Assembly: GCA_000091205.1 (NCBI GenBank)
Contig: AP006492.2
DNA from: Cyanidioschyzon merolae
Lineage: Eukaryota
DNA: 64,000 bases
Reading direction: 5' to 3' (one strand)
Made by a program: the position numbers and the translations under genes. Position 1 is the stretch's first letter, and every line of letters begins with the position of its first letter. The notes beneath the pieces are model-generated. The model made no database searches and had not been told where the DNA came from. It saw nothing but the letters and a program-made list of their open reading frames with translations. This document shows positions 1 to 45,948 of the stretch, one piece after another.

Positions 1-3000
1 GTTTCGTTGTGCAGAGGGTCACGAGTTCTGGGCGAACCCGAATAACATACGGCGAGGGATTCGTGGCCATGGAACGCAGCGCAAGCCGAGCTGGTGCCCG
101 CACTGCGCGCGTGAGCGCCGCCAAAAGTCTTGAGTCCAGCACGCTGTGCACAGTGCTCGAGAGCCTGCACACAACCAACGACATTCGTCGCTGGTTTGAT
201 GGACTCCGAGCATTTCAAAGCAGCAAGAGTGTCGTGCGGCAGCTCTAAGGGTCATCATGGCGTCGATTGCGCGCATGAAGGGTACGGAAGTTCGATTGTC
301 GAGGCCGGAACGCTAGCCTGGTGGCGGATGACACGGATCACGACGCAGCGCATCGTCGGCTTGAGACCGCCCGGAACGGCAGTTCCTCAGTCTGGGTACA
401 CCTGCATCATCAACACGCTTCGTTGACGCTGGAGAAGAGACTGATGGCGATTGTTGGTAACGTTGTGCGGTGGATGTGGCGCTCGCCCTACAGTTTAAAG
501 TTTTCGGGATTGCATTTTTTGTGCTTAAGGTTGTTTTTAGAAATCGCATCACTTTAGGACTCGAATACGCAACAGTGGGCCGGTACGCTAGATTTTGCGA
601 GCTAGAACTTTGGACACGAGCGCGTCGTAGGGACCCCGTATGGTCGTAAAGGTATGGCGTGCACCCCGTACGGAAACGGAAACGAGACACCGCGCGGTGT
701 GTTGTTATCACGATTGTCAGGTTCTATCATACGTTGTACATAAAGGTCAAATCATGGGACGTCATGGTCGTTCGCCATGTACCGAAAGGAACTGGTCTTA
801 GCGTACATGACCTGCGCTGCAGCCTCGCTGGATTGCTGAACCGCATCACGCCGGGGCATCGCTCCAGACAAGAATCCAATGTAATGAGGCGTACCCACTG
901 GTTTCATGATCCCAAGTGAGCAGCGTTTCAGCACAATGCCCTCACTGAATACGAAATGAATCCCTCAAGGGCTCGCCTGAAAGCAAGAAGCTGGACGCTC
1001 GGGAAGCTCGAACGATTTTCCGGAATTTTGATCGAGCATACGGCGTCTCGATATAGAAGGTGCTTCCGCGCATCGCTGCTGCTAGAATGATACCCAAGTT
1101 AGCCGCGCATCCGCGATTGCCTCGGCATCTGCTCTTCGATCAGCGTACCGTGCGCCATCTCGTGCGTCCGCCTCTGTTCCACGTTCGTCTGTTCTATCTG
1201 TTCCAGCGTGCACCTACGCTAGTGATTTGTTGATTTCGTCCGGATCGCATCGATGAGAATCGAGAACGATGGCGTCCTGGAAGCGTTGTACACTTACGTC
1301 AGTGGAGCATGCGTACAGCGTTTGAGCGCTGCAGCATGCCGAGCGCAATGGATACCCACAACTCAATGCGACATAGCGGCCATTTCCTCATCCAACTCTT
1401 TGAACAAGTTGCCGAATGCAAGTTTTTCGTCAAAGTACAAGTGAAACAATTGGCGGCCCAACACGTTTTCATATATTCCTGCGAAAAATCGTCGACGTGC
1501 GCCGTTTCAACGCCCATTTACGCGCTTGATCAAGCGTACGAAACATCCACCTCTGCTCTATACGGTGCTGAGGACGTCGATATCAAAATCCTGGCGTCGT
1601 CACGCGCCATGCTGATATGCTTCCTGGCATTCAGTGTGCCCGTCCCTCGATAAATTCGGAACCGCGCATACGTTGAGCAGGTTCATCTGCTTTCCAATCA
1701 AGTTTCTGGCGTTGTGCTCTTGGTTTCGAGGCACGACGATCTCCTTGGTGACCGTCGCTCCAGGAAACACGCTCATCACAAAGTGCTTCTCTTCATTGAC
1801 ATAATTCCGTTGAAATTGTGTCCCGTTGCTCCACGCAGGCCTGAGCTTCACTGCGTGCATATAGATCGGTGTTCCGTCGCTCTCCATCGTACTCATATAT
1901 TACGCTTCACGTACTCCTCGTAAACATGAAACATTGAACGAGCTCCGCCGGTGCACTCTGCCATGGTGTTTGAATGCTTCATACTTGCTCGCAGAAACGA
2001 TCTCCTTATCCGCTTCCACCATTGCGTGGGCGGATGGCATGCATGTGATCTTCATTCTCTAAATCCACTTTTTCCATGGTTTCAGACATAATCGGGGACG
2101 ATGGCGCTCGAGCTCGCCTCTTCGATATATGGGTCGAGTATTCCGCAGGTACTTTGCGTCACCTTCTCTGGAGCGGGCACGCCTATGGGCCGCAGCGCGA
2201 CTTTCCGCCCCGCCCTGCGTACGAGCAGGAGTTCCTTAGCTCGCTTCAGGGCTAGCACAGCGAAAGAATGGTTCGTAAACGAACATTGCCACGGATGCGA
2301 ACGACTCGTCTATTGATCTGTGAGCATCAAATTGGTGTTGGATAACAGAAAAGACGCCTTCGACTGGACTGAATCAGAAACAATAGACTGCACCGGAGTG
2401 CAGCGCAAAGTCGAACTATGCTGTGAAATATTGCACGGTTTTTGGGCGATAAAAAGTGACCTCGACATAGCGCATGACAGACGAGCATCGGACGGCGACG
2501 GCACGAAGCATGCATCGACAAAACGTCATATGATGAACGATCTTTTCTGTTGGACGCTTCATAGGCAAGCGCGCGACTGAGTCGGCTACGAGGCCCATGA
2601 TTTCGAAATGCTTGCTCGTCGCTTCTTCATGATGAGCAGATTTTCCCGCTTTGAGTACCCCGAGAAAGGTCTACGATTTCTCCCGAATGAAGTTTCATTG
2701 AGCAAGACGAACACCTGCCGCTCCTGTAATACGCGTTCACGTTTCAGTGCGAAATCAATCGGTTGTTGTTCGATGCACGACGCTCTCGAGCAGAAGCAAG
2801 CCTTATCGCGTTGTCCATCGGTTTCTTTTCTTCACCTTTCATAGCACCGGTAGAGACGCATCATATCGCGTGGCTCGTTTCGACTTCATTTCATCATAGA
2901 TTGTATGAAAAAGAAAGGATTGGCGAAGAGACATTCGCGCGGCAAGCGTTTGATAATTTCTGATTCAGTTGCACAACGTTCAGGGTATTGACTACCAGAA

Positions 3001-3443
3001 CGGTGGTTCATCCATCTGGTTCATGTGAAATAACTGACTTAAGCAATAAATCCCGTTTTTCGCGAGAGACCAGTGACACCATCGATTCCTTCCTCAACCA
3101 TTCCCCAATCTACAGGATACGTTTCTTCTGTTGAATTCCTGTAAGAAAAACAAACAAAAGCGGAAAAGCGTGCACTGATAAGAGCATTATGCAAGTCACT
3201 ACGCTTCCCCTAACGCTAGGCTCCGAACACGACCGCGACGGTGTATTCGCCTCGGTGGTCTTCGCTCTGACCCCAATCCATGGAAGCGAGCCGAATGCAT
3301 GTACATCGAGACGCAGCGCGTTCACGTGGTCAGCATATCCAGAGAAGCAAACCTGATGTGCGTAGACAGCTGAGGAGGCGTCGCTGCATCGGCTGCTGGG
3401 GCGCAGATTTTGCCCATTGTTGCAGCGCGGACAAGTGTTCCGA

Positions 3444-4035
3444 ATTCTCGAAAATTTACCTTCTAGGTGGAAGGTCTCGCGAGCCGGACGAGCCTGCCGG
3501 GCATACGCCCTGTGCGCCTCTGCAGCGACCGATGCTGTAGGGAGATCTCCGCTGCCCCTCGGCAACGTAATCAATCTGGGGCTCGCAGCGAGTATGCTGC
3601 GTTTCCGCGTCGCGCAGGTCGCAGAGGACTCCGAGCATATCGCTTCGCGCTATCGCAGGCAATACGTCTGTATGCGCATCTTGCAGGCTCCCTGAATGAC
3701 AATGAATCCCGAATCCATATCGTGCAGAACACGCCTCGAGCCGACGCCCTCTGTGGTATAGAAAAGCCGTCCTACGTCCGTGATGCATCCGTACCAAAGG
3801 TAAAGACGCCACTGCGGACTATCAGGGCAGGCATTAGGTGTCCGATAGAACGTAGGAAACGACCAGAATATCCGAGAAAAAGTATAGGTAATGTAACATG
3901 GAAGTAGGGCGTTTGAAGGATACTTCACCTCGCACTAAAAAAACACAAAAAAAAAGTAAGAAAAGAAAAATGCGCGTGATCGGAGAACGCTGGCACAAGT
4001 ACACCTTTTGTCCATGAAAAAAAAATCGGTGCTTC
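3444..4035 (+). repeat. Solo copy R1 of interspersed 'H+T' repeat family: head module (attctcgaaa..ggaaggtctcgcgagccggacgag) plus A-rich tail (cactaaaaaaacacaaaaaaaaag..atcggagaacgctgg..gtccatgaaaaaaaaa)
   Basis: Nucleotide similarity read directly to copies at 9033-9650, 13230-13700, 19176-20020, 41290-41660(rc), 51300-51730(rc); shared head 'ttctcgaaa.t.tacctt.taggtg.aaggtc.cgcgagccggacga' and shared tail 'atcggagaacgctggc..gttttgtccatgaaa'. No ORF. SINE-like (A-rich 3' end). Confidence 0.6.
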
Positions 4036-4435
4036 CAATTCTGGACACAGGTGGTGCTGGCGCAGCATCGCACAGCGCGCTCCATCAGCATGCCGCGGCA
4101 CACCGCGCGCCGTGGGCGCCACACACGCGAGCGTCTGCTCAGCGCGCTGCGCGGCACAGGAATCCAGATGCATGCGGTCTGTTGTTTTTTTTGATTGTTC
4201 GTTGCTGGTGGTCGCGTCTCGGCTGCAAGTTGCATATTCTTCGTGTCGGCGTGGTTGTGGGGTGCGTTCTTCCACTGGTACTAGAGGACAGGTTGTCAAT
4301 CTTGGTCGCTGACGACGAAAGCGCTCTTTAAGGGTTAGGCGCTGCGCTACTAACGCGGCACGCGTTTGACGGCAAGCTCTCTGCACCAGATAGGACGCTG
4401 CGGCTGCACCGACGCGTTCGCTTCGGCGTTCGTGT

Positions 4436-6151
4436 ATGAGTGAGGAGCGTGTGCATCAAAGCTCACCGCCTGCCTGCTTTAGAGGACCAGAATCAACGCC
4501 GTCTGTTTCGTCCACCGACGAACTCGCTGGTACGAAGCGTGAGCACCTTGTAGACTCGGAAAGGAGTTACCTGCAGCTGCCGGCGCTGACGGATCACTCC
4601 GATCTTTCGCTTGCCAGTTTACCCCTATTAGTGCAAGTCTCGGACACCCAGTCAGGGGATAGCGCGAAATCTGACTCGGAGCGAGCTTATGCACTAGTGC
4701 ACGTGTCACCTATTGCGACGGTTCGGGAGGTAAAGCAAGAGCTCGTGAAACAGGGTATAATCCCTGTCGAAGATCTACCTTCGGTGCAGCTGATATTTGG
4801 AGAAGAGACGTTATCGGAAAACTCCCCTTTAACAGAGTACTTCCTTCCGGAACTCTACGACTATTCGGAGGCATTGCTGCGAATGATTGATCAAGGAGGA
4901 CTCGACGTGGAGCAGAAACATGAAGCCATGGAGCGCGCGCTCCAAGTGATAGGGAGTATGCGCGATGGAATCTCCTCGGGCCGCGAGTCCAGCAGCACGA
5001 AGCCATCTGTGGCAAGTGCGGTTCAGCGCGCGGCAGCGCCTGGTAGCGAGCGACTTCAGCTGCCCGGAATCGACATGCTACCGCGGCCGTTAGGAACGAG
5101 CGCCGTCCATCTCGAGAACGAGGGCGCTACCGACGTTGTGGCAACTAGAAACGTTTCACCCGGGAAGGGCGTGACAGCAGCGCCTCTATGGTCGCCTATG
5201 CTGCCGTCTTTGTCGCCCACAGGAGCCAGCGTCATCGCAACCGAACCGTATGCGCTCTGGACGCCAATGCAGCTGAGCACGCCGATGGATATGGCCGAAA
5301 GGTTACACATGCTGGAGCCGAGACTTTTCACACCTGAGGGTGTTTCTGCTGTGGGGGCGTTCGTGCCGCTTTCAGCACGTCTGCGGCAGCAGAACGGGGG
5401 CCATTCCGCCCGTCTTATCGCGCAAGAGCCGGCTCTTCAACCAGGCGGTGGAGCGATAAGTGGCACCTCCTCCTTCGTCGACGCTAGAACACGCTCGCTG
5501 GCAGAAGCAGGACCGCTCGAATCCTCAGTAATACGGGGATCAGAAGCTCCTTGTGACATACCCAAGAAACGTGCAAAATACGCGAGGGCCGCGTCCGGAG
5601 CGCGAACCAGCACAGCGGGTAGCTCGTACTCGAGCGATATGACTGGACAATCACGCTGCGATCAGGACTGCGAATCTCCGCAACCTGGCGACGCAAGCTC
5701 CCTAGCGAGGAGCGGACCCCATGAACACACGGCGTCCGTTCAGAGCGCCGCGAACCAGCGTCTTGTTTCGAATTTGAAAAATTTACCGGATCGATGGGTC
5801 ATGGAAGGCGCCCACGAGGGCCAGGTCCCTGTTCGCGGTCGTAGCCAGGCGAGTCAGGGAACAGAGGCGTCTTCGAGCGACAGCCGCCCAGTACGGCTTG
5901 CGAGCCTGTCGCCCGAAGAGCGCCGCCGGCGCCGCATGGAGCAGAACCGCAAAAGCGCGGAACGCTCGCGCTTGCGCAAAAAGGAACTCGAACAGCGATA
6001 TCGTGCGGCGGTCCGTCAGCTTAGTGAAGAGAATGCTGAGCTGCGTCGACAGCTCGACTCGTTTCGCGAACAAATTCAACGAATGCAGCAGCTACTCGCG
6101 GTGCAGATGCGAGCGACATCCGCACCGCTGGACACACCGTCGCAACAGTAA
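4436..6151 (+). CDS. bZIP transcription factor (basic region-leucine zipper at C-terminus)
   Basis: ATG verified at 4436; C-terminal 'RRRRRMEQNRKSAERSRLRKKELEQRYRAAVRQLSEENAELRRQLDSFREQIQRMQQLL' = basic region (N-x7-R) followed by heptad Leu zipper; rest low complexity Ser/Ala/Pro-rich. Confidence 0.7.
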   Translation: MSEERVHQSSPPACFRGPESTPSVSSTDELAGTKREHLVDSERSYLQLPALTDHSDLSLASLPLLVQVSDTQSGDSAKSDSERAYALVHVSPIATVREVKQELVKQGIIPVEDLPSVQLIFGEETLSENSPLTEYFLPELYDYSEALLRMIDQGGLDVEQKHEAMERALQVIGSMRDGISSGRESSSTKPSVASAVQRAAAPGSERLQLPGIDMLPRPLGTSAVHLENEGATDVVATRNVSPGKGVTAAPLWSPMLPSLSPTGASVIATEPYALWTPMQLSTPMDMAERLHMLEPRLFTPEGVSAVGAFVPLSARLRQQNGGHSARLIAQEPALQPGGGAISGTSSFVDARTRSLAEAGPLESSVIRGSEAPCDIPKKRAKYARAASGARTSTAGSSYSSDMTGQSRCDQDCESPQPGDASSLARSGPHEHTASVQSAANQRLVSNLKNLPDRWVMEGAHEGQVPVRGRSQASQGTEASSSDSRPVRLASLSPEERRRRRMEQNRKSAERSRLRKKELEQRYRAAVRQLSEENAELRRQLDSFREQIQRMQQLLAVQMRATSAPLDTPSQQ

Positions 6152-6398
6152 TCCATTGAGGTCCCTACGCTTTACTTAGAGCTTTTCGTTCGCTTTTAAG
6201 CCGAGACGGCAGGTTGCGCAACGTCATCGAGTTGTAGACGCGCACGAATAGCGAGTGCTTATTTCTCGACACGATGAAACTGGATTCGGAAAATAGATTC
6301 ATGAACTAAAGAGTGAACTGATTCCCGATGGAGGCCGAACGCCGTTCGAAAGTCGAACGACGGCAGTGCACCGTAGTGGCGAGAAGGCCGCCCTAGAC

Positions 6399-8674
6399 TT
6401 AACGACTCCAACTGGCGTACTGACGCTTCCTAGGCTTTCTGGACCGGCCACCCACTACTGATTCCAACTTCTTCTCATATAAATCAACTTTGAGAGGTTG
6501 TCCAATAAAGTTCTCTCGTGTCCGCTCTGGAGGTCTTTTCTCCAGCACCGCGCATCTCCTGATATTGATAGCGGCGTTGAAGTCTCGGTTAACGAACTCC
6601 ATACGCTTCTTGCCATCATTGGTTGTACATACTAATGCAATGAGTCCACGAACTTTTGCCTTCCGTTCCATTTGCTCTCCCGTCAGCGGTCCGTACTTTG
6701 CAATTTCCTCAGGACTCCTCTGGCACTTTTCCATCTCCAGGCTCTGGAGTGTGCACCCCAGTTCATGATGTGTATAAAATGTTCGAAACTCATGGATCGG
6801 TATTGTGACAAAACGCCGTGCACACTCCTTGTACGTTCTTGTCGTCGGAGCTGGCAGAGTTCCTTTTTGGGTGTTCCATCGCCCTGCTCCGTACGCTACT
6901 ACAAGCCTCTGTCTTTCATCCTTCTTCGAGGCGCTCAACTCATTGAAAAAATTCGCGAACGCCCGCTACCTCCCACCATATAGATTCGTACGCAGACGAG
7001 CCCACCGGGGCTCTGTATACTCCTCCCACAGCGCCTCCCAATGGGCAACAAGAACTTCCATGAAATTCCGAAAAGCTGTAAAGTCCGCTCCTCGGCTCGT
7101 CACCTCGCTCATAGCTTCAAGGTGATCCTTCATTCCTGCGTTCCACGTAACGATTTTCTTCCTTGCATTCATTATACCGGATTCTCGGTAGTATCTTGCT
7201 CTGGAGAACCTCCAAAGGCGCATGTCTTTCTGACGTAATTTGCCGTCAGTACCATATTCCGCACGCTTCGGTGCTGTGATGGTTATGATATTCGTGTTCC
7301 CAGGGTCTGCGCCGACGACAAAGTCGTTATCTTGGACTCTCTCCGTCGCAGGACCCGCCTCCTTCTTTTCTTCATGTTTCGCCGCGCCAACGACAAGGTC
7401 GTTATCCCGCACCTCCTGCATTGCAGGACCCGCCTTCTTCTCATCTTCATCCTTCGTGACGGGCGCAGCCAAAGGCGGACCAGCACGATCTTTCTACAAC
7501 CGCCGATAGTGTACACACAAGGCTACTCCATCGGTTTCGATCAACCCAGTGAACCACTTTTGCTCGCTCATTTTGAGACGTTTGAAATTGAAGATATTCT
7601 TCCAGTACGTTTCCCGGTTTTCATCGGAGAACTCCTCCCTGTTACCATTGAACTCCGGACTGATCCCCTTCATGATGCCGTAAAGGACTCTGGAGTCGGT
7701 ACTCACGAAATGTGACTTGATGTTGCACATTGGAACGACGTTGAAGCGCTTCCCCATTGGGACAGCCTTCCGTCTCTCCCACTCTTCATTTTTTTTCCCC
7801 ACTCAGCTTCATCTCTGCTTTGCGCTCGAGTTCTCGGTCCATGAACACGAAATACCGTACGACGAGGCGATCGTATCTTTCCTTATCTTTTTTCATGTCT
7901 GATATCTTGTCTGTTGGATTCGCCAACCCAGTACCGCACGATGCTCTTGAATAGCCGCACGGATTACAGAAGCTTCATTCGTGCTCTCGTTTGACGCCTT
8001 CTCGTCGACAAATTCGACCTCATCTTCACGCTTGCGATCTTTCACGATGTCGTTGATAATCGCCCATTTCCCATGGCGAGAGATGCCCTGGTACAGCGCA
8101 AACACGGCGCGTATCATGAAACGTTCGGGGTTCACTGTCAAATGGTTCTTCAGATTCGTGAAGTACTTCATTGCCCCGTCTGTGTAAATATCCCCGTCAC
8201 CCTTGTATCGAGTACCCTCGAGGCTGTAAAAGGGATGTTTTTCGTGGAGAGCATGCACTAGCTCATTTTGCCTCCTCGTTTCCCCTGTACCAAGCATCAG
8301 GTAACGAATAAAGTCTTATCGAAAAACTCGTCCGGAATCTCGACCGTTTCCGTGTGCGTCACGTCTCCGTACATCTCCCTCGCCAAATGAATCAATCCTG
8401 ACGACACCTCGACAACACGCTTGGAGTACGAGTCGACACGTTTTGCTGATACCCTCTCGCAACTTTTCCCTCTAGGGATCCTTGATATGTCCAAGACGAA
8501 AAGGTTTTCACCATAATATCGTCGTGCTGTCGTCTTTCCTGCAGCTTCTGACGTTGGACCTCTCCGTTTTGCCTCTTCGTCTTGTATTGTGGCTCCGGGC
8601 TTGGTACTTTTGTTCGTTTTTTTTCTGGCAGCCGGCGACACCTGTCTTCCAGGATCCTTCATTTCCATGTCCAT
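6399..8674 (-). pseudogene. Disrupted Fanzor/TnpB-like nuclease ORF (copy A): frameshift at ~8297, frame break 7802-7893, in-frame stop 7494-7496, ~69-bp tandem duplication at 7290-7450, frameshift 6938-6966
   Basis: Pieces align colinearly to copy B, but sit in different frames or are separated by stops. Start ATG 'MDMEMKD' at 8674; stop TAA at 6399-6401. Confidence 0.65.
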
Positions 8675-8900
8675 AGCTTTCCTTTGTTATTTTTTTGAAG
8701 AAGAGCGCACATGAAACGCGTTTGCTGTACACCGCGGGAAAGCACTTGAGTACACGCATTTGAGGGTTGAAACACGGTTGCACTGACAGACTATACGCTG
8801 CTAGGGCTTTAATGCAAATACAACTCGTACGTTATAGCAATACGCTCATATTAAGGATCGCGTTTCCCAGTTACGGCAAGATGCGCTTTGCGTCTCATGC
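6399..8900 (-). mobile_element. Fanzor/TnpB-like (IS605 OrfB family, RuvC nuclease) element, copy A, including conserved 5' noncoding region (8675-8900) and 3' region
   Basis: Conceptual minus-strand protein assembled from ORFs 8297-8674, 7893-8297, 7494-7802, 6966-7472, 6399-6938: RuvC-I '[13 protein letters not shown]' (Asp ~7306-7308), 'TSRGADF', 'RLVVAYGAGRW', Zn-finger region 'EFRTFYTHHELGC..LVC', RuvC-III 'VNRDFNAAINI' (6571-6597). ~50-60% aa identity to copy B at 41969-44094. Confidence 0.75.
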
Positions 8901-9032
8901 ATGCCAGATATGGAGATGCGCGTCTTGACTGCGCTCTAAAATAAAGAGCGGATAGGAACCTCTAAATACCAACTATATAACAATTTCTGGCCCCGCCTGC
9001 GATAAACGTTGAAAAAGGGAAAAGCTTACGGT

Positions 9033-9650
9033 ATTCTCGAAAGTATACCTTTTAGGTGCAAGGTCCCGCGAGCCGGACGATTCTGCCAGGGTTGTGCCTC
9101 ATGGTCGCCGCAGTGCTTCGTGCTGTAGTAAGATCTGAGCAGTTCGTCCGAAACGCAGTTGATTCTGGTACTCGTAGCGGGTATGCTGCACGTGGGCGTC
9201 GCTCTGGTCGCAGTGGACTCCTCGAATATCGTTTCGCGCTGCCACCGGCACTACGTCCGTCTCTACTGTTTCCACGCTCCCGGAATAATAATGTACTCCA
9301 GACCACGTGTCGGATGCATCATAATTCGATCCGACGCCCTCAGAAGCATGGAAAACCCGCCCTGACTTCGTGCTGCATCTGCCGCAGCGGTCTGACCGCA
9401 GACGCGGGTGCCCCAGACAGGCAAGACCCCCGATAGAACGTAAAAGAACGATCAGTATTTTCGAAAGCAAGTCTGAATGATAGACCTTGGTACACCAGCA
9501 TGACGAACGCTTTGTTTCGATTACCAGTACGCATCCCGCAATCTGGGATCCTTCGTCAATGGAACCGGTTTATCAAGAGTAGAGAAGATCACAAGCAGCG
9601 TGGCCGCCGCCTGCCTGACACAGCGGCTACACGGCCTACAGCATTGCTGT
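9033..9650 (+). repeat. Copy R2 of the H-module repeat (no A-rich tail), abutting the 5' end of Fanzor copy A in divergent orientation
   Basis: 'attctcgaaagtataccttttaggtgcaaggtcccgcgagccggacgat..gctgtagtaagatctgagcagttcgtccgaaacgcag' matches R1/R4/R5; downstream 'gcatcccgcaatctgggatcc' matches internal part of R4 (19690). Confidence 0.55.
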
Positions 9651-10445
9651 TTATCGACGCGCTGCCAAACGGACGCGCAGGGACTCGTCGTACGCGTTAC
9701 ACTCTCTCGGTGGAAGCACACGTTTCCAATGGCAACACGACACATGCTTTGGATGCTTGGACGTTATATTCGAAAGGTGCCTTTAGGGCGTTTGGGTGAC
9801 TCGGCACGGGCGCGAGCGCTGTCAAGCAGCGCGGCGCGCGGGCATGCCTCCTCTTCGCACGTCGCTGGCTCGGAAGGTGCACACGCGAACGCTACGTTTG
9901 AACGCTGGCGACTGATGAGCGCACTCGGAGCACTACCCGTTCTGATCTACGGTGTATGGCTGTTCCGGCAGCCGCACGAGCACGCAGAGCCGCCGCCTCC
10001 GTACCCGTATCTGCGGAGGCGGGTGCGCGATCCAGCTTTTCCCTGGGGCAACCACGAGCTGCTGGGCACGCCCTGGGATCATGAGTCGCCCCACGCTCAC
10101 ACAGACTCTGAGTGAGCATCACGGACTGAGGGGACGCGTTGGTTTTCTAGTCTGGCAATATGCCCGAGCATCGCGTGTAACGGCTTCGATCGCGGATACA
10201 TCCTAATCATCAGGCTTATCGTCACGGAAGCTTTTCATGGAAATCCTATCTCGAACTCAGGTAATGCTGCGGATGTGGACGGGTGCTCGCGTGGTCTCTT
10301 GGGTCTCGTCACCTCTCGCCCGGCATACAGAGCATGCTACGGACGGGCGCGTGCCCATCAGGAACACAACGTGCCTGTGATCTCCCGTTCCCGTACGCGA
10401 TGCTCGTTTCTGTAGCGCGCTGGATGCAGCCTCCACCCTGGTAAC

Positions 10446-11876
10446 ATGCGTAAAATGCTCGACACGATGTTGAAGAACGCTCCCGAGCGTCCCGCGGCCT
10501 CCGATATCCGCATCCCCGGTGAGCCAGGAGGCACCGGCACCAGCCGCGCGCGCGCACATGCACCCCGAATCCGCGCCCCTGAGCATGGCTCGCTGTCGAC
10601 GAGCGGGCCTCTTCCTTCCAGTGCCTTGGCAAAGCTGGGTTTCTCAACGAAGGTTTCCGGGTTGCGGGCGCTTGTGCTGCGCGCTGTCGCAGGCAGAGGC
10701 GGGCCCGGGTGCGTTTCGTTTGCTCGGGCGCGCTTTCGCCGTGTAGGTCCGCCGGACGGTGGCACCGGTGGCGACGGCGGGAACGTCATCGTTCAGGTCA
10801 GTGCGTCCGTGAGCTGCTTGCCTTCTCATCGGCACGTGGTCGTCGTGCGTGCAGAGAATGGTGCTCCAGGCCAACGCTGGGAACGGAGTGGACGTCGCGG
10901 CAAGGACGTGCGCTTCGTGGTGCCTCCAGGCACCTGGCTGCGCTGGCTGCGTGATCCAAGCACCATCGACAGTAGTCGCCCGCATGTGTTTCTGAATCTG
11001 AACGATACCGAGGATGACCAGCGCATGAACGACGCGGTACAAGCTCTTTCGGCCTTGGAGCCGTCTTGCTTTGCGCGAAACGATGCGTCTGATTCTGTTA
11101 AATTTGATGTGGACGACGGAGCGGCAACGTCGGCGTCCTCGGATTTCCCGGCGTCCGTCAAGTCCGCACCCGCCCATGTTTTGGTGAAGAGCAGCGTTGT
11201 TGCTGCCGCAGGCGGTAAGGGAGGACACGGAAACACCTTTTATCAGTCGTCGGTGAATCGCTCACCAAAGCAAGCGCAGGCGGGTCTTGAGGGCGCCGAA
11301 CAGCTCGTGCTGCTCGAGCGGCTCCCAGTCGCTGATATCGCCATCGTCGGTGCCCCGAATGCCGGCAAGTCGAGTTTGTTGGCAACATTGACGCGTGCGC
11401 GGCCTGAGATTGCGCCAACCCCATACACCACGACGGAGCCGATGCTGGGCGTACTCGAAGATCACCAGACCTGGATGCGGTCGATCCTGGTGGAGATTCC
11501 CTCCAAGACCCTGGAAGACGCCCAGCAAAGCCCGGAACTTGTGTGGCACTTATTTCGCGCGTGCCGTCATGTGGTTGCAGTGGTCGACCACCAGCGTACC
11601 GCGGGCAATACGCGACTGCTGCGGGAGCAGGTTCGTGCTCTGCAACGCATGGTCGCACCTCGAGTCCTCGCTGGTTGCGTCGTGCGTTCGCATTTGCTCC
11701 AGGGCCAGCCACAAAAGGACCAAGCGATGCCGCAACACATGGAAGGCGTGGCGTTGCTTACGCGTTTAGCGGATGTGCGCCAGGCTTTACTCAAACTAAC
11801 CACAGAGCCACCCTGGGTGCTTCACACGGACAATGAACAGGGAACGCGGCATTCGCAACGGATGCTTGGGCGTTGA
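10446..11876 (+). CDS. Obg/CgtA-family GTPase-like protein (Obg glycine-rich N-domain + P-loop); probably organellar
   Basis: ATG at 10446. 'FRRVGPPDGGTGGDGGNVIVQV..RAENGAPGQRWERSGRRGKDVRFVVPPGTW' = Obg fold; G1 'IVGAPNAGKSSLLATL', G2 Thr 'YTTTEPMLGV'. Canonical G3 DxxG and G4 NKxD not evident. Confidence 0.55.
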   Translation: MRKMLDTMLKNAPERPAASDIRIPGEPGGTGTSRARAHAPRIRAPEHGSLSTSGPLPSSALAKLGFSTKVSGLRALVLRAVAGRGGPGCVSFARARFRRVGPPDGGTGGDGGNVIVQVSASVSCLPSHRHVVVVRAENGAPGQRWERSGRRGKDVRFVVPPGTWLRWLRDPSTIDSSRPHVFLNLNDTEDDQRMNDAVQALSALEPSCFARNDASDSVKFDVDDGAATSASSDFPASVKSAPAHVLVKSSVVAAAGGKGGHGNTFYQSSVNRSPKQAQAGLEGAEQLVLLERLPVADIAIVGAPNAGKSSLLATLTRARPEIAPTPYTTTEPMLGVLEDHQTWMRSILVEIPSKTLEDAQQSPELVWHLFRACRHVVAVVDHQRTAGNTRLLREQVRALQRMVAPRVLAGCVVRSHLLQGQPQKDQAMPQHMEGVALLTRLADVRQALLKLTTEPPWVLHTDNEQGTRHSQRMLGR

Positions 11877-13229: not shown

Positions 13230-13700
13230 CGTCAATCAATCGCCGGCTTCGCGTACCGCGTTGCACCCGAGCGCTAGCATCTTGCGTGCGTTGGGGTGCG
13301 CGCGCCGGCACGCACCTCTCGATGCGTGCCGGCGCATTCGGGCGGGCGATGCTGCGAGTAACGCCTCTGCTGCTGCCGAGCATGCAACAGGCGATGCGTC
13401 CTCGAGCCGACGCCCTCTGTATGGTACGGCAACGCCGTTCTGTCTCCGTGCAGGGACCGCACCGGCGCTATAGGCGCTATTGCGGTCGCCGCTTTCGGCA
13501 GGCACTAGGCACACACGATAGGACGTATGAGATGACCAGAATATCCGAGATGAAGGATAGGTAATGTAACGTGGGAGTAGGGGATTCGGTGGATACTTGA
13601 CCGCGCACTGAAAAAATAACACAAAAAAGTAGGAATAGAAAAATACGCATTATCGGAGAACGCTGGCCTAAGTAAACGTTTTGTCAATGAAAGAAAAACT
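13230..13700 (+). repeat. Solo copy R3 of the H+T repeat family (5' part diverged or truncated)
   Basis: 13395-13700 aligns with R1 3735-4035 ('cctcgagccgacgccctctgt..agaatatccgagat..ggtaatgtaac..cactgaaaaaataacacaaaaaagtagg..atcggagaacgctggcc..gttttgtcaatgaaag'); weaker match back to ~13230. Confidence 0.5.
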
Positions 13701-14761
13701 GGCAACACGTATGATGCAGAATGACACGGTGGGCGTGCTTGCCCCGATGGTATCTCGCGTTTGGCGTCGAGCCCTGGCGTGCGTCTGTGCGTGCCACGCG
13801 CGTCACGTAAGCGATACATGATGCTGGTGTGTGCCTCTGCCCACGGGACGCTCCCGTGTCGAACGGCGGGCCGCCTTCACGAAGCGTCTGCGCGGAGCCA
13901 ACACCCAGGTGCCTCCAGAAGGGTACGCAGAGACCAGTTGACCTGAGGCAGCGCTTGCGCCAGTACGGACGCGTTTCTGGTGCATGACCGCAGCGCTACC
14001 CCTATCGGATACTTGTCGTTGGTGTTGGTCGGCACAGCGAGCCGTACGAGTGTGCGTTCCGGCGCCTGTCGCGCTCAAGAGAACCCTGTATGGATAGCGC
14101 CAAGCGTGCGATACCCGGTTCCGAGGCCAGCTTCCATGACGCCGTATAGCCGTCCCGCCTCTCCGTCAGGCAACAGCAGCAGCGCACCCGGCTGCACAAC
14201 AAGTATCTACGATAGGCTCTGCATTCGTGAGGTCGATGGATCGCTCGAACCCCTATATCCCAGATAATGCCTTTTCCATACGTCGTGCTGTACATCCATC
14301 TATGGACAAGAAGTGTACTCGATTCCGCACCTGCCTGCGGAAAGCGCCGCCAGCACCAGCAGCTCGCGCGCCCTTGTTATCATGGTGAAAGTTCAATGAA
14401 ACGTTCCACGGCATCCGCCAAGCAAAGTCGTTCTCAGCATGACGCAAGACGTGCACCAAGCTGCACCAGCAAAAATTACCGCTCATGCTTGCCTGTGGAC
14501 GTCTCATCTTGGTGTCGCGCTGGATCATGATACCGGTTACCTGGCGCGCGAGATGCGCCAGTGCCACACAGCGGCGCGCGTGTGGCCAGCACGACGCCCC
14601 GCTCCGCCTCCCTGCCCTGAACGTATCGTGTGTCGAGGGGCAGGCATCGCTGCGTACTAGCACTGGTACCAGGTGCGAGCAGTCCGGTGTGACTTCGCTT
14701 TCCAGGCGTACGGGTGTTGTGTCTGTGACGATACGCACGGTGGTTTGCAAAAAATCGCAAA

Positions 14762-17700
14762 ATGGGACTGGTCTCTTTTCGGCAGCGGTCGTACCGCTGG
14801 TTTGACCGTTTCTCGGTGATGCTGACGCGGAACCTACGTCTCGTGTACCGCGACACCTTTGCGCTCGTGCTGGTGTTGCTCGTTCCGTTCCTCTTCACGT
14901 TCTTTGTCTTTATCGCGCACTTGTCGTACAATGACGATGCGATTTTCTCTCGAACGACGGGGCCGAAACCGGACCCGCCGGCAATTCCTTTATCCAGCTA
15001 CGTGGAGCCGTGTCGTGCAGTTGTCAGTGATCGTTGCTACAACTTTGCGGTGGTTCCTGGCTCCAACAGCACCGTGGTCGGCTGGGTACAGGAGGTCTCC
15101 AGGCGCCTTGGGCTGTCCACCGCAGTGAACGAGTCGGGAGGTATCATTACATTCGAAACCTCTGATGCGTTGAACGAGTTCATGGTTGCCAACCCGAACG
15201 TGACCCAGGCTGCGTACGTGTTCGAGCCCGAGCAGCTGCGCGCTATCGACGCTGGACGCATTAGTTTCACGGTTCAGTACAACCAGTCTTGCCAACAGAC
15301 GTTTCCTGGTTTTATTTGTAGATACCAGGAGGTGTATTTGGTCCCTGGAATGATTGCGGCGATGAACGACGTCCTGCTGGGGACCAGGCTGAACCTGAGC
15401 AGCGCCTTCATGCCGCATCCGAAACTGCAGTCTGCATTGGACGCTTTTGAAGAATTCGGTCCCTTTATGATGTTTGGATCGCTGGTTATTGTTTTTGTTT
15501 ATTATCTGATGGTCTTGGTGGGTGAGAAAGAGTTGAAACTGCGAGAGGCGTTGAAAATGATCGGTTTGTCGCAGTCGCTGTACTTTCTGAGCGAGGGCGT
15601 TGTTTTCATCCTCGTTTCGACGCTATCAGTATTTCTGCTGTATGCGTTCGGAGCCCTTTTCCAATTTCAGTTCTATCTTAAGAACGCCTTTGGATGCGTG
15701 TTTTTCACGTACTGGATTTTCTCTCTGAGTTTGATATGCTGGGCGTTTTTCTTCCACGTTTTCCTAACCCGATCGAATCAGGTTTCATCGGCTGCGTTCG
15801 TTTTCTTCATCCTGAGTTACCTGTTGGGGTCCTCCGGCGCCTACCTCTACTACGACAAACCCTCGGGAGGTCCATTCGTATCGAGGTCGCTTCTATTTCT
15901 GCGATATGTATTCGCGCTTTTGAGCCCAGTGATGTTTTACAAATGCGTTACCGACCTGAGTATTTACTCGGCTGTGTTCACTGGTCTAAGATGGAGCGAT
16001 CGCGCCAGCTACACGAACTTGTGGCCGCTGACGCAGTGCTGGAGCTGGATGATCTGGACGGGCATCGTCGTTCTGGTGCTCGCCATCTACCTCGACAACG
16101 TGCTTCCGAACGTCTATGGTGTCAGCCTGCCCTGGTGGTACCCGTTCTCTGCTGCCTACTGGCGAGGAGACGCACTGCATCTCCAGCAGCAAAAGCGAAA
16201 AGCATGGCGCCTTTTCCGCCGCCACCGCCGCCAGCGTAGCCAAACAGACACCACCGGCGATGCAGACGACGCGGAAGCGGACGAGGCAGTCAGCGCTGCG
16301 ATCGCAGCGCTCACTGCCCAGCAGCGACATGTGGACGCTGACGACGCGGTCAACGGCAAGGAGGGATACGAGCCGAAAGACGCTGCTGCGGCCGCTGCAC
16401 TGACGAAGTCGTGGGCGGCCTCTGCGCTCGAACACAATGGTGACATGCCCGCTATCGACGCCAGCGATCACGAGGGTATCATTGTGGCTCCGGAAACAGA
16501 CGCCAAGGCAGCGTCAGCGCCGTTGATATTGGCATCATCATCATCATCACCAATGTCGTCGTCGACGGAGTTGGAGTCTGCCAGGGAGCCCGATACGACG
16601 GCGTCGTTCCTGGAACGGCTCCAGTCCATGGTGGAGGTCGCACGCGAGCCTTCACATCGTCACAGCGATGACACGCCAGAAGCGAAGACGGCGGACGCAG
16701 CAGTCGACGCAGACGTGGCAGCGGAGCGCGAGGCCGTTCTCAGCGGTAGAGGGCTCTCGCCGGCGAGCGCTCTGGTGATCCGCCGTCTCACGAAGCATTT
16801 CCGCAAGCAGCTTGCCGTCGACGATCTGTGTTTGTCGGCCGACCATGGAGCACTGACCTGTCTTCTGGGTCCGAATGGAAGCGGGAAGACAACCACCTTT
16901 AATATGCTCACCGGTGTGTTTCGTCCTACCGCTGGAGACGCCTGGGTCTACGGTTACTCGATCACGCAGGAACAGCAGCTGTTACGCCCACTCATGGGGG
17001 TGTGTCCGCAGCACGATATTCAGTGGGCGAATCTCACGGCCGCTGAACATGTGTACTTGTTTGCGACGTTGAAAGGCATCCCCCGATCGAAGCGGCACGA
17101 TGAAGTGAGCCGACGTCTCGAGCAGGTGGATCTGCTGCGTGTTAGCCACAAGTACCCGCGTCAGATGTCCGGTGGCATGCGGCGGCGGCTCTCGGTGGCC
17201 ATGGCCCTGGTCGGAGATCCGCTCATTGTCTACCTCGATGAACCGACGACAGGCATGGACCCGAGCATGCGGAGAGCAGTCTGGAACATGATTGCCGCTG
17301 CGAAACCAGGTCGAACAATCGTGCACACGACGCATTCTATGGAGGAGGCTGACGTGCTGGGTGACCGCATCGCGATCATGTATCGCGGGCGACTGTCGGT
17401 ACTCGGAACACCGCTTCGTCTGAAACACAAGTTTGGTACCGGGTATCGACTGAGCGTCACAGTGCAGGCAACGCAGAGCGAGGCTTTGCACGATCGCCTG
17501 CGGGCGCTCTACCCACGAGTCAAGCGCCTGAGCATCAGCACGCTCGCAGACCAGCGGTATGTGCTGTGTGAATACGAGCTGGTGCCGCTGGAGTCCACGA
17601 ATCTCTTCCGCACCAGTGATGGCGGTGGCACGAACCAGTATCGCTCAGTGCAAGCGCAGCGACGCCTCTTCCAAGAGATGGAGAACAATGCCAGCGGCTG

Positions 17701-17929
17701 GGGAATTGCCGACTTTTCGGTGAGTGGCACCTCCCTCGAGAGCGTGTTTATTCGTGTATTTGAGCTTAACGAGCAGCTTCAGCATACGGCGGAAGCGAGC
17801 GCTAGGGCGGCAGCCGCTGAACCTAAGCGGCGGACCTGGCCTTGGCTGCGTTGGCCTTGGGTCAAATCTCGTCGAGGCGAGCTCCAGTCGCAGCCGATGC
17901 AAACCGCAGAGACGGAGACTCGTCGCTAG
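14762..17929 (+). CDS. ABC transporter, subfamily A half-transporter (one TMD with large loop after TM1 + one NBD)
   Basis: ATG at 14762. TM1 'LVLVLLVPFLFTFFVFIA', then ~200-aa loop, then TM cluster; Walker A 'LLGPNGSGKTTTFNMLTG', signature/Walker B 'MSGGMRRRLSVAMALVGDPLIVYLDEPTTGMDP', H-loop 'TTHSMEEA' (ABCA-type). Ser-rich low-complexity insert before the NBD. Confidence 0.85.
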   Translation: MGLVSFRQRSYRWFDRFSVMLTRNLRLVYRDTFALVLVLLVPFLFTFFVFIAHLSYNDDAIFSRTTGPKPDPPAIPLSSYVEPCRAVVSDRCYNFAVVPGSNSTVVGWVQEVSRRLGLSTAVNESGGIITFETSDALNEFMVANPNVTQAAYVFEPEQLRAIDAGRISFTVQYNQSCQQTFPGFICRYQEVYLVPGMIAAMNDVLLGTRLNLSSAFMPHPKLQSALDAFEEFGPFMMFGSLVIVFVYYLMVLVGEKELKLREALKMIGLSQSLYFLSEGVVFILVSTLSVFLLYAFGALFQFQFYLKNAFGCVFFTYWIFSLSLICWAFFFHVFLTRSNQVSSAAFVFFILSYLLGSSGAYLYYDKPSGGPFVSRSLLFLRYVFALLSPVMFYKCVTDLSIYSAVFTGLRWSDRASYTNLWPLTQCWSWMIWTGIVVLVLAIYLDNVLPNVYGVSLPWWYPFSAAYWRGDALHLQQQKRKAWRLFRRHRRQRSQTDTTGDADDAEADEAVSAAIAALTAQQRHVDADDAVNGKEGYEPKDAAAAAALTKSWAASALEHNGDMPAIDASDHEGIIVAPETDAKAASAPLILASSSSSPMSSSTELESAREPDTTASFLERLQSMVEVAREPSHRHSDDTPEAKTADAAVDADVAAEREAVLSGRGLSPASALVIRRLTKHFRKQLAVDDLCLSADHGALTCLLGPNGSGKTTTFNMLTGVFRPTAGDAWVYGYSITQEQQLLRPLMGVCPQHDIQWANLTAAEHVYLFATLKGIPRSKRHDEVSRRLEQVDLLRVSHKYPRQMSGGMRRRLSVAMALVGDPLIVYLDEPTTGMDPSMRRAVWNMIAAAKPGRTIVHTTHSMEEADVLGDRIAIMYRGRLSVLGTPLRLKHKFGTGYRLSVTVQATQSEALHDRLRALYPRVKRLSISTLADQRYVLCEYELVPLESTNLFRTSDGGGTNQYRSVQAQRRLFQEMENNASGWGIADFSVSGTSLESVFIRVFELNEQLQHTAEASARAAAAEPKRRTWPWLRWPWVKSRRGELQSQPMQTAETETRR

Positions 17930-18545: not shown

Positions 18546-19175
18546 ACAAGGAGTGCCCGATGTCGCTGCTCAAGGAACGTGTCGATGACGCCCTATGCAA
18601 ATACACGCGGGTACATTGGACACGATTTCGCGTGCGCCGCTCTTCAAACATACACTCTTGGGAAAAACCTTTTTCACGCAGGCGCCGCTGCTTGGTAACC
18701 TATCGCGCAGCAGTGATCCAGCGTGTCTCGACCTGACACCTTCATTCATGAACCCGCGCTTCATACCAAGCAGCAGAGCATGGAGCCAGAATCTCTGTTA
18801 TCCGACGCTGTCTGCATAGAGGAGTGCTCGCATGCAACCTGCTGGCGCATGTGGATACGCGTTCTTCACAGCTTTCTGCCCTTGGACTAGTCTACGGGCG
18901 TGCGCGCTCACTTTCCCCGAAAGTCGATAGAGCAATCACTCGACGGCACCAAGCGTCGTCATTCTTCGCGGGAAACGTCGTCTTCGCTTCGATGGTTGTC
19001 GACAACAGTCGCGCATCCAGGGGATACTGGTACCATGCATCAGTCGCATGCAATCAGTGAACACACTGAACGAGATACCAGAAACAAAACGAGAGAAACC
19101 AAATTCTAACTAGCGTCTAGATAAGAATGTCGTTCAAACTTCACGGTAAGCATTGACAGGGAGACGTTTTCCGCG

Positions 19176-20020
19176 TATTCGAGTGTTACGCTTCTGGGGG
19201 CAGGAGGCCCCGCGAACCGGACGAGTCTACCGGGCTTGCGCTCCGTGTGCCTCTGCATTGCCGGGCTCAGGAGCAAGACGCAAGGAACTCGTTCGCCACG
19301 CAGTTCATTCTGGGACTAGGAGCGGTTGGGCTGTCTCTGGGCGTCGACCTGGTCACGGAAGTCTCCAAGCATATCGCTCCACGCTGCCGCAAGCTGAAGA
19401 GCTGGCTGCGCAACTCGCACGCTCCCAGCAGGACGAAGAGGCCGGATTCCTTGTTCAATGAACCACGCCTCGAGCCGACACCCCCAGTGGTGTGGCAAAG
19501 CCGTTCTGACTGGGTGCTCCATTCGCACCGGCGGTACAGACGTTACGGTGGGTGCTCACTGGATGCGCTCAGTCCACGACAGATCGTATCGAGCGACCAG
19601 TCCATCCGAGAGCAAGGATCGGAGATGGAACTTGAAGGTACACTGAAGAATAATGGACGCTTTTCTTAATCTCAATATGCATCCCGCAGTCTAGGATCCA
19701 CGCTCCAAGTAAACGTTCTGGATGAACAAACGCAATCCACAAGGGTCGTCTGCGCCGCTGTGCCGCTCCGGGAACGCGGCAGCGATCCATGCAATCGCCC
19801 AGCTCGCTTGCAACGCATGGCGATCGTCCCGGAGGCGCGGCCGGAGCGGCAGCTCAAGGCAACGAAGGGCGAGGCGAGGCAGCGCGGTGCGGCAGGCGCC
19901 ACCGGCGGCGATCGCATCGATCACATGCACCGCGCACTGAAAAACCCCCCAAAAAGAAAGGCAAAATGCGCATCATCGGAGAACGCTGGCCTGAGTGAAC
20001 GTTTTGTCCATGAAAAAGAA
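19176..20020 (+). repeat. Solo copy R4 of the H+T repeat family (longest copy, ~845 bp, extra internal segment)
   Basis: Head 'ggaggccccgcgaaccggacgagtctaccgggc', body 'cacgcctcgagccgacaccc', tail 'cactgaaaaaccccccaaaaagaaaggcaaaatgcgcatcatcggagaacgctggcctgagtgaacgttttgtccatgaaaaag' match R1/R3. Confidence 0.6.
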
Positions 20021-20249
20021 AATCGATCGCATGCGCGCCAGCTGCGCGCACACGCACGTCGCTGCCGGCAGTTCAAAATCATTCGCCGCTGCGCAACGCA
20101 CAACGCGATCCTGGACAGTTGCCGCATTCCCAGGGCGCACGCGCGTGGCGCCCTTCGTGCATCCGACGGTTGCGGAGGTACTGGTGCTGGTACCCGCGAG
20201 CGTGGACATTGCTTTCCACCAAGTGCTGGGTTGGCGACAGGCCCCTTGG

Positions 20250-23187: not shown

Positions 23188-23794
23188 CACAAGGCGACGT
23201 CGTCGCTCGTCTTCGCGAAGGGCACCAGCATCAGGCGCCGTCGTCTCGGACGCACGCGTTGCCTTAGTTGCCGTCCCGCGAGAGACCGCCTCGCGTGCCG
23301 TAAACACCCACAGCGAGTCCAGCTGTCGCAGCGGCGGACGCTGACGCTGACCTGCAGCCGCCATGCCAGCTGCAGTGTCCGCGGATGCCGCAACCTCAAC
23401 CGCTCGGTGCCGGAGTTCCGAAACTGACCCCTCTCCGAGTCTTGTTTACGAGTCGTTCCAGGGCTCCCGCCAGTCGGTCGCTGCTGCGGAGCCTCGTCAA
23501 CGAGCGCTGGGTGCGCGGCCCCAGCGACTACGCACGAGACACCGCGAAACGCTGCACGCAACGAGTCAACCAGCTTCACTGCAGCCGCAAGCGCCTTGAG
23601 CCCTTGCTCACTGGTGATAAACCGGGCTTGACAAACGGAACACTCGTTGACGGGTACGCAACGCACACGCAGCAGCAGAGGCACACGCCTACCGCCGTTC
23701 CATCGCAGCGACACGGCGGCGTGCCGGGCGAGGCGGCGCCTTCGATCGACTGCCGCGCGATGCGTAGGCGCGCCGCCTCGCCCGGCACGCCGCT

Positions 23795-23995
23795 GAGAGT
23801 GTGTGTGCTTGTGTATCTGCGTCTGCGTCTGTGTGCTTGTGTATCTGTGTGTCTGTGTGCTTGTGTGTCTGTGTCTGTGTCTGTGAGTGTGTGTGCTTGT
23901 GTGTCTGTGTCTGCGTCTGTGTGCGTCTGCGTCTGTGTGTCTGTGTGCTTGTGTGTCTGTGTCTGTGTCTGTGTGTCTGTGTCGGGATACAGGAA
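23795..23995. repeat. Compound GT/CA-rich microsatellite (gtgtgtctgtgtgcttgtgt..)
   Basis: Read directly; intergenic between the cyclin start and the GAPDH 3' end. Produces spurious poly-HT/CV ORFs on both strands. Confidence 0.7.
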
Positions 23996-35799: not shown

Positions 35800-35980
35800 G
35801 TTGCATGCATGCGCTTGCACACGTGTCCATGCATGCGTGACCATGCATGCGTGTGCATTCAATGCATGATCGCTGTACGCGTGTCCATGCATGCATGCGC
35901 TTGCACACGTGTCCATGCATGCGTGTGCATTCGATGCATGATCGCTGTATGCGTGCTTGCGTGCGTGCGCGTGCACGAAG
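35800..35980. repeat. Tandem repeat (~70-80 bp unit x2-3) rich in palindromic CATGCATG / GCATGC motifs
   Basis: 'gcttgcacacgtgtccatgcatgcgtg..catgcatgcgtgtgcattc[a/g]atgcatgatcgctgta[c/t]gcgtg' repeated; read directly. Confidence 0.6.
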
Positions 35981-40817: not shown

Positions 40818-41289
40818 CGCACACGTCCTCTCAAGCGCTCTCGTTCGTCGAGGTACTCGGGCACTGCACGAGCGAATGTGTGCAGTAGTTGACTGCGCCA
40901 GGAACGCACTACGAAACGACTTGCTCAAGGCGGCAGTCCGTAACGTTACTGCACAGAACATGAGTAATAAGCGTCGTCCCGAGGGTACGAAGTCGTCTGC
41001 GGCAGTCGACGACTGGCGGCGACGCGGCGATTGCGGCGCTTCTGGTTGACGATTTCTCTTTGTCTTGACAAAACGTTTACGTTGACCACGGATCACAGAC
41101 TGCGGGATGGATATCGGTTGTCGACAAAGCATCTGTCATACTGCGCCCTACCTCCAAACTCCATTTCGCATATCTCCTTTCGGATATACTGGCTGTTTCG
41201 CACGTTCCATCGTGCGGCGGTTTCTGGCTTTGAGCACCCGCCGCCGCGCCCCAACCATTTACACGGATGCATCACGGAGGCAGACTGAC

Positions 41290-41660: not shown

Positions 41661-41759
41661 TATATATTTGCTGGTAAATCGAGAGTCTCTGTACAATTTT
41701 TTCATATAGCGCGTTCCATACGCGCACCCGGGAGATCAGGCCGTCACATGACACGACGG

Positions 41760-45812: not shown

Positions 45813-45948
45813 AGTCGGAGAAAAAGCCTGTATAGGCTGCTACTCAGGACAATGGAGTAAATCACACTTTAGGGCGTATGCCCGATGTAGCTCTGTGAAC
45901 CCGTTCCGTTTCGTACTGACACGAGCGTGTCGCGGCCGCCTTTGCTTT

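Follow-up and report, generated by a model that had tools for sequence, protein, structure and literature searches.

We analysed a 64,000-nt stretch of Cyanidioschyzon merolae DNA (contig AP006492.2; hereafter the window), with a base composition of ~57% G+C and the character of intron-poor eukaryotic sequence with long single-exon genes. Between these genes lie elements carrying a Fanzor (TnpB-like) gene and the copies of an interspersed repeat, for which we use the terms H (the body module), T-type tail (carrying the motif cactgaaaaaa..atcggagaacgctggc..gttttgtccatgaaaaa) and T' (a diverged version of that tail). A preliminary description had taken this H+T family to be an uncharacterised one whose solo copies may move by the transposase of the Fanzor element or, alternatively, H may be a short interspersed nuclear element (SINE) captured by it. 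Our data lead to a different reading. We observed homology to a published consensus, continuity with an element encoding a reverse transcriptase (RT), a shared 3' end, 5' truncation, target-site duplications (TSDs) and an orientation bias, and H+T is very probably the 3' terminal part of APE-type non-LTR (lacking long terminal repeats) retrotransposons, or LINEs (long interspersed nuclear elements), of a Cyanidioschyzon-like red alga.

The interspersed nature of the repeat is well beyond chance, with E-values from 1e-16 to 1e-54 in self-blastn and from 1e-42 to 1e-181 in nhmmer searches of the window. The self-blastn partners of 3429-4035 were 9033-9379, 13400-13698, 19186-19640 together with 19928-20025, and, on the other strand, 41626-41069. 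A hidden Markov model (HMM) built from the copies placed ~600-bp full units at 3431-4032, 9020-9603, 19165-19759 and 41624-41030; it recognised 13400-13705 as half a unit and 19968-20027 as tail alone. The six copies counted previously therefore stand as six pieces, but five of them bear H and one is a tail-only fragment (Table 1), since R4, drawn before as a single element at 19176-20020, consists of two insertions, R4a and R4b, separated by ~190 bp of GC-rich DNA unrelated to either. R3 had been given as 13230-13700 and was found to be restricted to its last ~300 bp. Self-blastn matches end at the element borders and the DNA beyond the tails is unrelated in all copies; no extended shared flanks were found by this search, and the copies are therefore not segmental duplications.

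Table 1. Repeat copies, Fanzor elements and host genes in the window, with blastn alignments to the CMe-1A consensus
Feature	Position	Strand	Description	CMe-1A consensus	Identity
R1	3431-4025	+	LINE 3'-end unit, T-type tail; body (3438-3908) is the reverse complement of the consensus segment	84-553	78%
R2	8945-9590	+	T'-type LINE-tail module, TE-N2_CMe-like; inside Fanzor element A		
R3	13399-13699	+	~300-bp 5'-truncated T-type LINE tail	84-257	78%
R4a	~19085-19739	+	Solo TE-N2_CMe-type (T') unit; reverse complement of the consensus segment	7-617	74.5%
R4b	19930-20022	+	93-bp T-type tail fragment, strongly 5'-truncated separate insertion; tail HMM positions 472-568		
R5	41050-41697	-	T'-type LINE-tail module; 5' end of Fanzor element B		
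Element A	6363-9590		CMe-1A copy: Fanzor body 6363-8944 (-) and R2; broken open reading frame	4-3140	81-87%
Element B	41050-44094		CMe-1A copy: Fanzor body 41698-44094 (+) and R5; broken open reading frame; orientation opposite to A	4-2995	75.7%
Element C	1050-1792	-	Decayed 3' part of Fanzor (TnpB-like) gene		
Element D	52088-52945	+	Remnant, 3' part of Fanzor gene		
bZIP gene	4436-6151		Single-exon		
OBG-type GTPase gene	10446-11876		Single-exon		
ABC transporter gene	14762-17929		Single-exon		
SAS-6 gene	within 19995-21818		Single-exon		
HisRS gene	within 39315-41132	-	Single-exon		
Patatin-like lipase gene	45949-48291	-	Single-exon		

The family has been described before. Bao & Jurka 2013 (PMC3627910; Mob DNA 4:12) reported a ~3-kb Fanzor1 element, CMe-1A, present in ~150 copies in C. 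merolae that are ~80% identical to their consensus, the first ~635 bp of which equal TE-N2_CMe (Repbase). Both were given as lacking terminal inverted repeats (TIRs), with TSDs undetermined and class unknown. In addition, Nozaki et al. 2007 described a 3.2-kb 'novel interspersed repetitive element' (253 copies, ~5% of the C. merolae genome) with an open reading frame (ORF) similar to WSV486, a protein of white spot syndrome virus. We took the 3169-bp CMe-1A consensus from Additional file 2 of Bao & Jurka 2013 and aligned it to the window by blastn. H+T' is the reverse complement of consensus positions 1-~635 and is therefore TE-N2_CMe, an element known here through the description in that paper. 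Judged from these alignments, the H+T family is the one already described as TE-N2_CMe, as one end of CMe-1A and as the 3.2-kb element of Nozaki et al. 2007, so that the label 'uncharacterised' no longer holds. The window copies resemble these elements in sequence family, in the ~635-bp length of the unit and in its position at the upstream end of the Fanzor element; the 74-87% identity of A, B, R1, R3 and R4a to the consensus agrees with the ~80% reported for its copies. They are unclassified in the literature, whereas here the module is assigned to the 3' end of a LINE with TSDs.

By alignment, two tail lineages can be distinguished. The T-type tail quoted in the preliminary description was recovered in R1, R3 and R4b, but R4a carries the diverged T' version, as do R2 and R5; the T'-type lineage corresponds to TE-N2_CMe. 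The T-type tail lies outside the published consensus, where it substitutes for positions 1-83. In R2, the 5' ~635 bp of element A and antisense to its Fanzor ORF, the tail reads GGTTTATCAAGAgtagagaagatca. R1 matched the T-type LINE-tail HMM at positions 200-569 (3654-4022, E=1e-77) and R3 at positions 276-569 (E=2.5e-68), while R4a was matched over 19068-19758 by an HMM of elements A and B. In all copies the A-rich end falls at the identical alignment position; following GTC[A/C]ATG or GTCATCG, it is made up of ~5-10 A, with interruptions in some of the copies.

To extend the comparison beyond the window we used 120 loci (L007-L126), obtained when metagenome contigs were scanned once with an 18-mer lying in H. 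Most of these hot-spring loci come from a few recurring metagenome samples, including the sample that carries this alga. When 13 long T-type copies were aligned, they showed a sharp 5' border, TACCTTCTAGG, and a 3' end reading ...AACGTTTTGTC[A/C]ATG(A)n. In several loci the homology reaches beyond the 5' border, and between L108 and L068 it extends for at least 3.5 kb upstream at 87% identity. This upstream sequence encodes a reverse transcriptase domain (Pfam RVT_1, E=1.4e-18; score 67.8 bits, gathering cut-off 29.6) and, C-terminal to it, a CCHC knuckle. The stop codon of the LINE ORF lies 125 bp inside the T-type unit, and the translation of the solo units aligns to the last ~45 residues of this ORF. 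A second LINE-derived element, internally deleted and 42% identical in its RT segment, carries a T'-type tail at its end. Because the unit is continuous with an RT-encoding element whose ORF ends inside it, H+T is assigned to the 3' end of non-LTR retrotransposons. The unit would comprise the last ~45 codons of the LINE ORF, the 3' untranslated region and a short A run. Elements of this class are known from C. merolae, for which Nozaki et al. 2007 reported 26 non-LTR retrotransposon copies, three intact RT ORFs and no LTR elements.

The mode of insertion was studied in the T-type copies. Among 28 non-redundant tails, matches to the HMM started at positions 1, 4, 93, 200, 225, 250, 276, 382 and 472, and all had a common end at positions 560-569, followed by the A run. 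For each of 31 non-redundant copies we then matched the 40-bp 5' flank against the 40-bp 3' flank, with flanks paired between different copies as the control (mean score 5.5, 95th percentile 7, 99th percentile 8). The duplications that the preliminary description had suggested looking for were found: 11 of the 31 copies scored above the 95th percentile of the control, with TSDs of 10-15 bp. The best of these adjoin both ends of the copy, in full-length and truncated copies alike, and include ATTGGAAGGCGAAC (14/14), ATCCAGTCTACG (12/12) and ATCGATTCCA (10/10), as well as CATCACGCGCAT, ATCGATC[G/A]GTGCAT and ATGCGATGAG[A/G]AAT. In the window, R4b is flanked by ATCGATCACATGCA (19916-19929) and ATCGATCGCATGCG (20022-20035), which are identical at 12 of 14 positions. 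R3 belongs to an abundant class starting at CCTCGAGCCGACGCC (HMM 275-277; at least 10 non-redundant copies), some members of which have perfect 14-bp TSDs, and its own flanks hold a possible decayed TSD, GCAACA..GATGC (13384-13398 and 13702-13717). For R4a, no convincing TSD was found when the flanks and the aligned 5' ends were inspected. Solo copies of the TE-N2 type have a sharp common 5' end, AGAACAGAAACTAACC, and at 2 of 4 loci TSDs that start immediately behind the A run.

An A-rich 3' end, variable TSDs of 10-15 bp and truncation at insertion are together the signature of target-primed reverse transcription. We infer this mechanism, and with it a LINE as the source of the enzyme. The LINE reverse transcriptase would start on a nicked, A-rich target and copy the RNA from its 3' end, and early stops in copying would leave a shared tail, a shortened 5' side and flanking target duplications of 10-15 bp. 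The discrete short forms, namely the ~635-bp TE-N2, a form of ~570 bp from TACCTTCTAGG and one of ~295 bp from CCTCGAGCC, look like amplified non-autonomous subfamilies. As a kind of repeat this is ordinary: LINE tails in a small algal genome.

Several points weigh against the LINE assignment. RT sequence was not found in the window itself, and an autonomous LINE with a full endonuclease domain was not among the recovered loci, in which L054, L068 and L108 are degenerate or internally deleted. At the start of the APE endonuclease only the motif 'ASWNICEI' or 'ASWNICGI' is left, followed by a K/E-rich low-complexity region (L108 reverse complement ~1844-2100; L068 581-799). The LINE copies seen contained no match to the initial ~80 bp of TE-N2, taken in the orientation of H. 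Moreover, the 120 loci were chosen by a single 18-mer inside H, so their copy classes are not an unbiased census. Finally, the TSD scores of full-length CMe-1A and T'-type copies were overall indistinguishable from those of the control, and TSDs were detected on no full-length CMe-1A copy; the lack of detectable TSDs on CMe-1A and most T'-type copies may be due to the age of these copies, which are 75-86% identical to the consensus, or to another mechanism.

The position of the tails relative to genes was determined for 59 unique tail ends from the loci and the window, taking the nearest non-repeat ORF of at least 200 amino acids within 1.5 kb downstream. For 33 tail ends the nearest downstream gene had the same orientation as the tail and for 5 the opposite one (binomial p=4e-6, an approximate value given some redundancy between samples), and co-oriented genes usually began 100-600 bp from the tail. 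As proposed in the preliminary description, R1 and R4 lie upstream of, and co-oriented with, the bZIP and SAS-6 genes, and the same arrangement extends to R2, which precedes the OBG-type GTPase ORF, and to R5, where ~230 bp separate the tail from the HisRS start codon downstream (the position of this codon being deduced from the 500-aa homologue P0001). This placement may matter to the annotation of Cyanidioschyzon promoters. The position bias may stem from a target preference or from selection; the TSDs tend to open with AT directly after an A run, as a target preference might produce.

The same bias could also be explained if the solo copies were deletion remnants, that is, former full Fanzor elements or LINEs of which the part beside the 5' end of a host gene was kept as a promoter. 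A compact genome should favour deletions, and element D shows that loss of other parts occurs. We nevertheless consider this explanation unlikely for the family. Truncated copies have their own TSD directly at the truncated 5' end, so truncation happened at insertion, and many independent copies start at one nucleotide (HMM 276 or consensus 635), unlike the outcome of random deletion. Individual copies that lack TSDs, such as R4a, may still be deletion remnants.

In the preliminary description it was suggested that the solo copies may be non-autonomous derivatives moved by the transposase of the Fanzor element; they would then be internally deleted or one-ended forms of a DNA transposon. H+T' does belong to the same sequence family as one end of that element, a Fanzor gene or remnant is linked to three of the window's five H copies, and the CMe-1A consensus contains a 10-bp inverted match between GACAAAACGT (5-14) and ACGTTTTGTC, ~70 bp from its 3' end. 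However, the solos match only consensus 1-635 and nothing of the CMe-1A 3' end, and the unit ends, read directly as TACCTTCTAGG... and ...GTCAATGAAAAAAA, do not form an inverted repeat. The TSDs range in length from 10 to 15 bp, also around 5'-truncated copies, and Nozaki et al. 2007 listed no more than eight transposase-related elements in C. merolae, all of them with only weak similarity to bacterial transposases. The solos also have an A-rich 3' end, and their continuity with an RT-encoding LINE largely refutes this idea, which we regard as very improbable. A miniature inverted-repeat transposable element was rejected, since there is one end only, TIRs are lacking and TSD length is variable.

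Rolling-circle 'one-ended' transposition of the Helitron2 type would leave a similar signature of a common end, truncation at the opposite end and variable TSDs. Bao & Jurka 2013 (PMC3627910) described it for CRe-1, CRe-2 and CRe-3, Fanzor1 elements of Chlamydomonas with truncation on one side and variable TSDs of 7-19 bp. Like the CMe-1A family, these carry Fanzor1, reach high copy number and show one-sided truncation and TSDs of variable length. In the CMe-1A consensus, the subterminal inverted 10-mer is followed by a hairpin, GCCGCCA..TGGCGGC, near the 3' end, and a hairpin with a 9-bp stem lies at ~555-600, near the TE-N2 boundary. In contrast to CRe-1 to CRe-3, the constant end here is the 3' end of an RT-encoding element with its A-rich tail, and no RepHel partner, no Helitron end homology and no Rep/helicase sequence were seen in any fetched locus. 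The hairpins are lost in decayed copies and are, by our own estimate, only marginally beyond chance, and the authors who defined Helitron2 left CMe-1A unclassified. We regard such a mode as very improbable for H+T; for CMe-1A itself it may still apply.

The alternative of a captured SINE came close: H is a retroposon module that predates the Fanzor body and is independent of it. The classical SINE itself was rejected, because the unit has no tRNA, 7SL or 5S head and its first ~125 bp are LINE coding sequence. ARAGORN found no tRNA in the window, and Rfam gave nothing at the gathering threshold in the window or at E<=1 in 3350-4150. Having no head for RNA polymerase III (Pol III), the elements are not classical SINEs but LINE-tail subfamilies and truncated copies of LINEs. 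H was also examined for coding capacity, and six-frame translations of the five window copies revealed no conserved frame, while Pfam searches with the ORFs of H had no match.

LINE-derived repeats of this kind have well-known counterparts. In RIME/ingi and NARTc/L1Tc of trypanosomes, in HAL1 and in SINEs that share the tail of a partner LINE, the 3' end is common with an RT-encoding LINE, as it is here. The family likewise resembles RIME/ingi- and HAL1-type retroposons in its A-rich terminus, its TSDs of 10-15 bp, its 5' truncation at insertion and its short subfamilies that outnumber the parent. Unlike those retroposons, it has no Pol III head, the recovered parent LINEs retain little of the endonuclease domain, and there is a strong bias towards positions upstream of co-oriented genes.

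Next we considered how the LINE tail is combined with the Fanzor gene. CMe-1A is a composite of an antisense TE-N2 module and, adjoining it downstream, a Fanzor body of 2.5 kb. Among the 120 loci the arrangements comprised full CMe-1A, solos equal to consensus 1-634/636, short units of consensus 84-257/282 with a T-type tail, and a second composite, made of a Fanzor body (consensus ~640-3169) preceded by a T-type unit that is directed toward the body. Since the body is joined to tails in two orientations (antisense TE-N2 and sense T-type), the H module is independent of it. Fanzor bodies show a star-like pattern with 66-84% pairwise identity, in which the sense-tail composites form a younger group. 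An origin of the sense-tail composite by 3' transduction was rejected, because the Fanzor 3' end is not followed by an A run.

It is conceivable, and we propose it tentatively, that CMe-1A itself is a retroposon rather than a DNA transposon and was spread by LINE machinery. An antisense transcript through the Fanzor gene that ends in the TE-N2 LINE tail would be copied by the LINE reverse transcriptase, and solo H+T copies would then represent an early stop of the same process or tail-only copying. In support of this, all CMe-1A copies end exactly at the A run of the LINE tail, with unrelated flanks beyond, and TSDs are present on solo tails of the TE-N2 lineage. In addition, all retrotransposons reported in C. 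merolae are of the non-LTR class, and a clear eukaryotic DNA transposase is not among the reported elements (Nozaki et al. 2007). Against it stand the full-length copies without TSDs, although a 13-bp duplication would be largely erased at their 76-86% identity to the consensus, element D, which is a Fanzor 3' part without a tail, and the second composite with its sense tail and no A run after the Fanzor 3' end. L1 5'/3' transduction and SVA offer a parallel, in that unrelated sequence, in this case a Fanzor gene, is attached to a 3' module recognised by a LINE, and the many copies of the composite all end at the LINE tail. In contrast to these, the cargo of CMe-1A is antisense and no TSDs were found on full-length copies; retroposition of the composite is a proposal made here.

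If true, CMe-1A would exemplify the carriage and amplification, by retrotransposition, of a gene for an RNA-guided nuclease of the TnpB family; a 2026 review states that evidence for such cases is lacking. It would also bear on the question why TnpB/Fanzor nucleases persist in non-excising elements. Beyond the literature found, TE-N2_CMe and the upstream end of CMe-1A can be classified as derived from a LINE 3' end and inserted by reverse transcription, with measurable TSDs. The analysis thereby adds a classification, TSDs, a bias in position relative to genes and a link between a Fanzor family and retroposition that can be tested.

The window elements themselves were compared in the light of this structure. 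Elements A and B, ~3 kb each, are 69% identical to each other, and in both the H unit lies upstream of the Fanzor ORF and antisense to it. Their ORF pieces carry the TnpB/Fanzor motifs VGVDPG or VVGADPG (the latter in element A), EFRT..C and NRDFNAAINIRRC, including the RuvC-like motifs GADPG, EFRT and NRDFNAAINI, and are ~90% identical to the published CMe-1 protein over the stretch compared by eye. Pfam and PDB sequence searches with these pieces had no match. Element C was detected at 1071-1792 by nhmmer with the A/B HMM (E=8e-14) and at 1024-1440 by tblastn. It is collinear with R1 at a spacing of 2349 bp versus 2399 bp expected; by this arrangement, R1 is probably the terminal module of a decayed Fanzor element and hence not solo. 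For element D, the corresponding matches were 52088-52924 (E=2e-18) and 52121-52339, and neither H nor a tail was detected, which is a poor fit to a simple 5'-truncation model.

Within the Fanzor ORF, a ~75-bp tandem duplication was noticed (window 7309-7456, L015 1-249, L110 10323-10627). It corresponds to CMe-1A consensus 2117-2196, is K/E-rich, precedes GADPG and occurs in 2-5 copies, the number varying between elements. The Fanzor 3' end (consensus 3085-3169; window 6363-6440) contains hairpin-like palindromes, the first being GCCGCCA..TGGCGGC and the second, which has two variants among the copies, CTTTCGAAAG or CGTTCGACTTTCGAACG. This palindrome region is the expected place of a putative Fanzor guide RNA.

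Element B is not present between the patatin-like lipase and HisRS genes of a related species (L004-L006), whose HisRS is 84% identical to that of the window. The spacer measures 1.9 kb there (8063-10001) versus 4.8 kb in the window (41132-45949) and contains neither H nor Fanzor sequence, its intergenic DNA being too diverged to define insertion borders. A weak match to the H core was seen elsewhere in the related-species locus (L004 14677-14803). A look-up of the exact protein sequence found no record of the window HisRS, which is 99% identical to a metagenome-only protein, 84% to a protein of GCA_041825655.1 and 72% to that of Cyanidium caldarium. Two metagenome contigs, L001 and L002, align collinearly to the window (99.5% identity). 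With the match to the C. merolae repeat consensus, these identities point to C. merolae or a very close relative.

Just downstream of R2, between element A and the OBG-type GTPase gene, an ORF at 9600-10115 ends in the motif PYLRRRVRDPAFPWG, which we take to be like that of cytochrome c oxidase subunit VIa; it is presumably a small host gene. Self-comparison of the window also showed tandem or inverted repeats with units of ~80-100 bp (79-91% identity) at 23716-23982 and 35802-35976, outside the elements studied here. In addition, an inverted repeat pair unrelated to the LINE and Fanzor elements (45176-45817 and 59224-59864; 640 bp, 95% identity) is spaced 13.4 kb apart; L001 and L002 both terminate within it, as would be expected where a repeat interrupts assembly.

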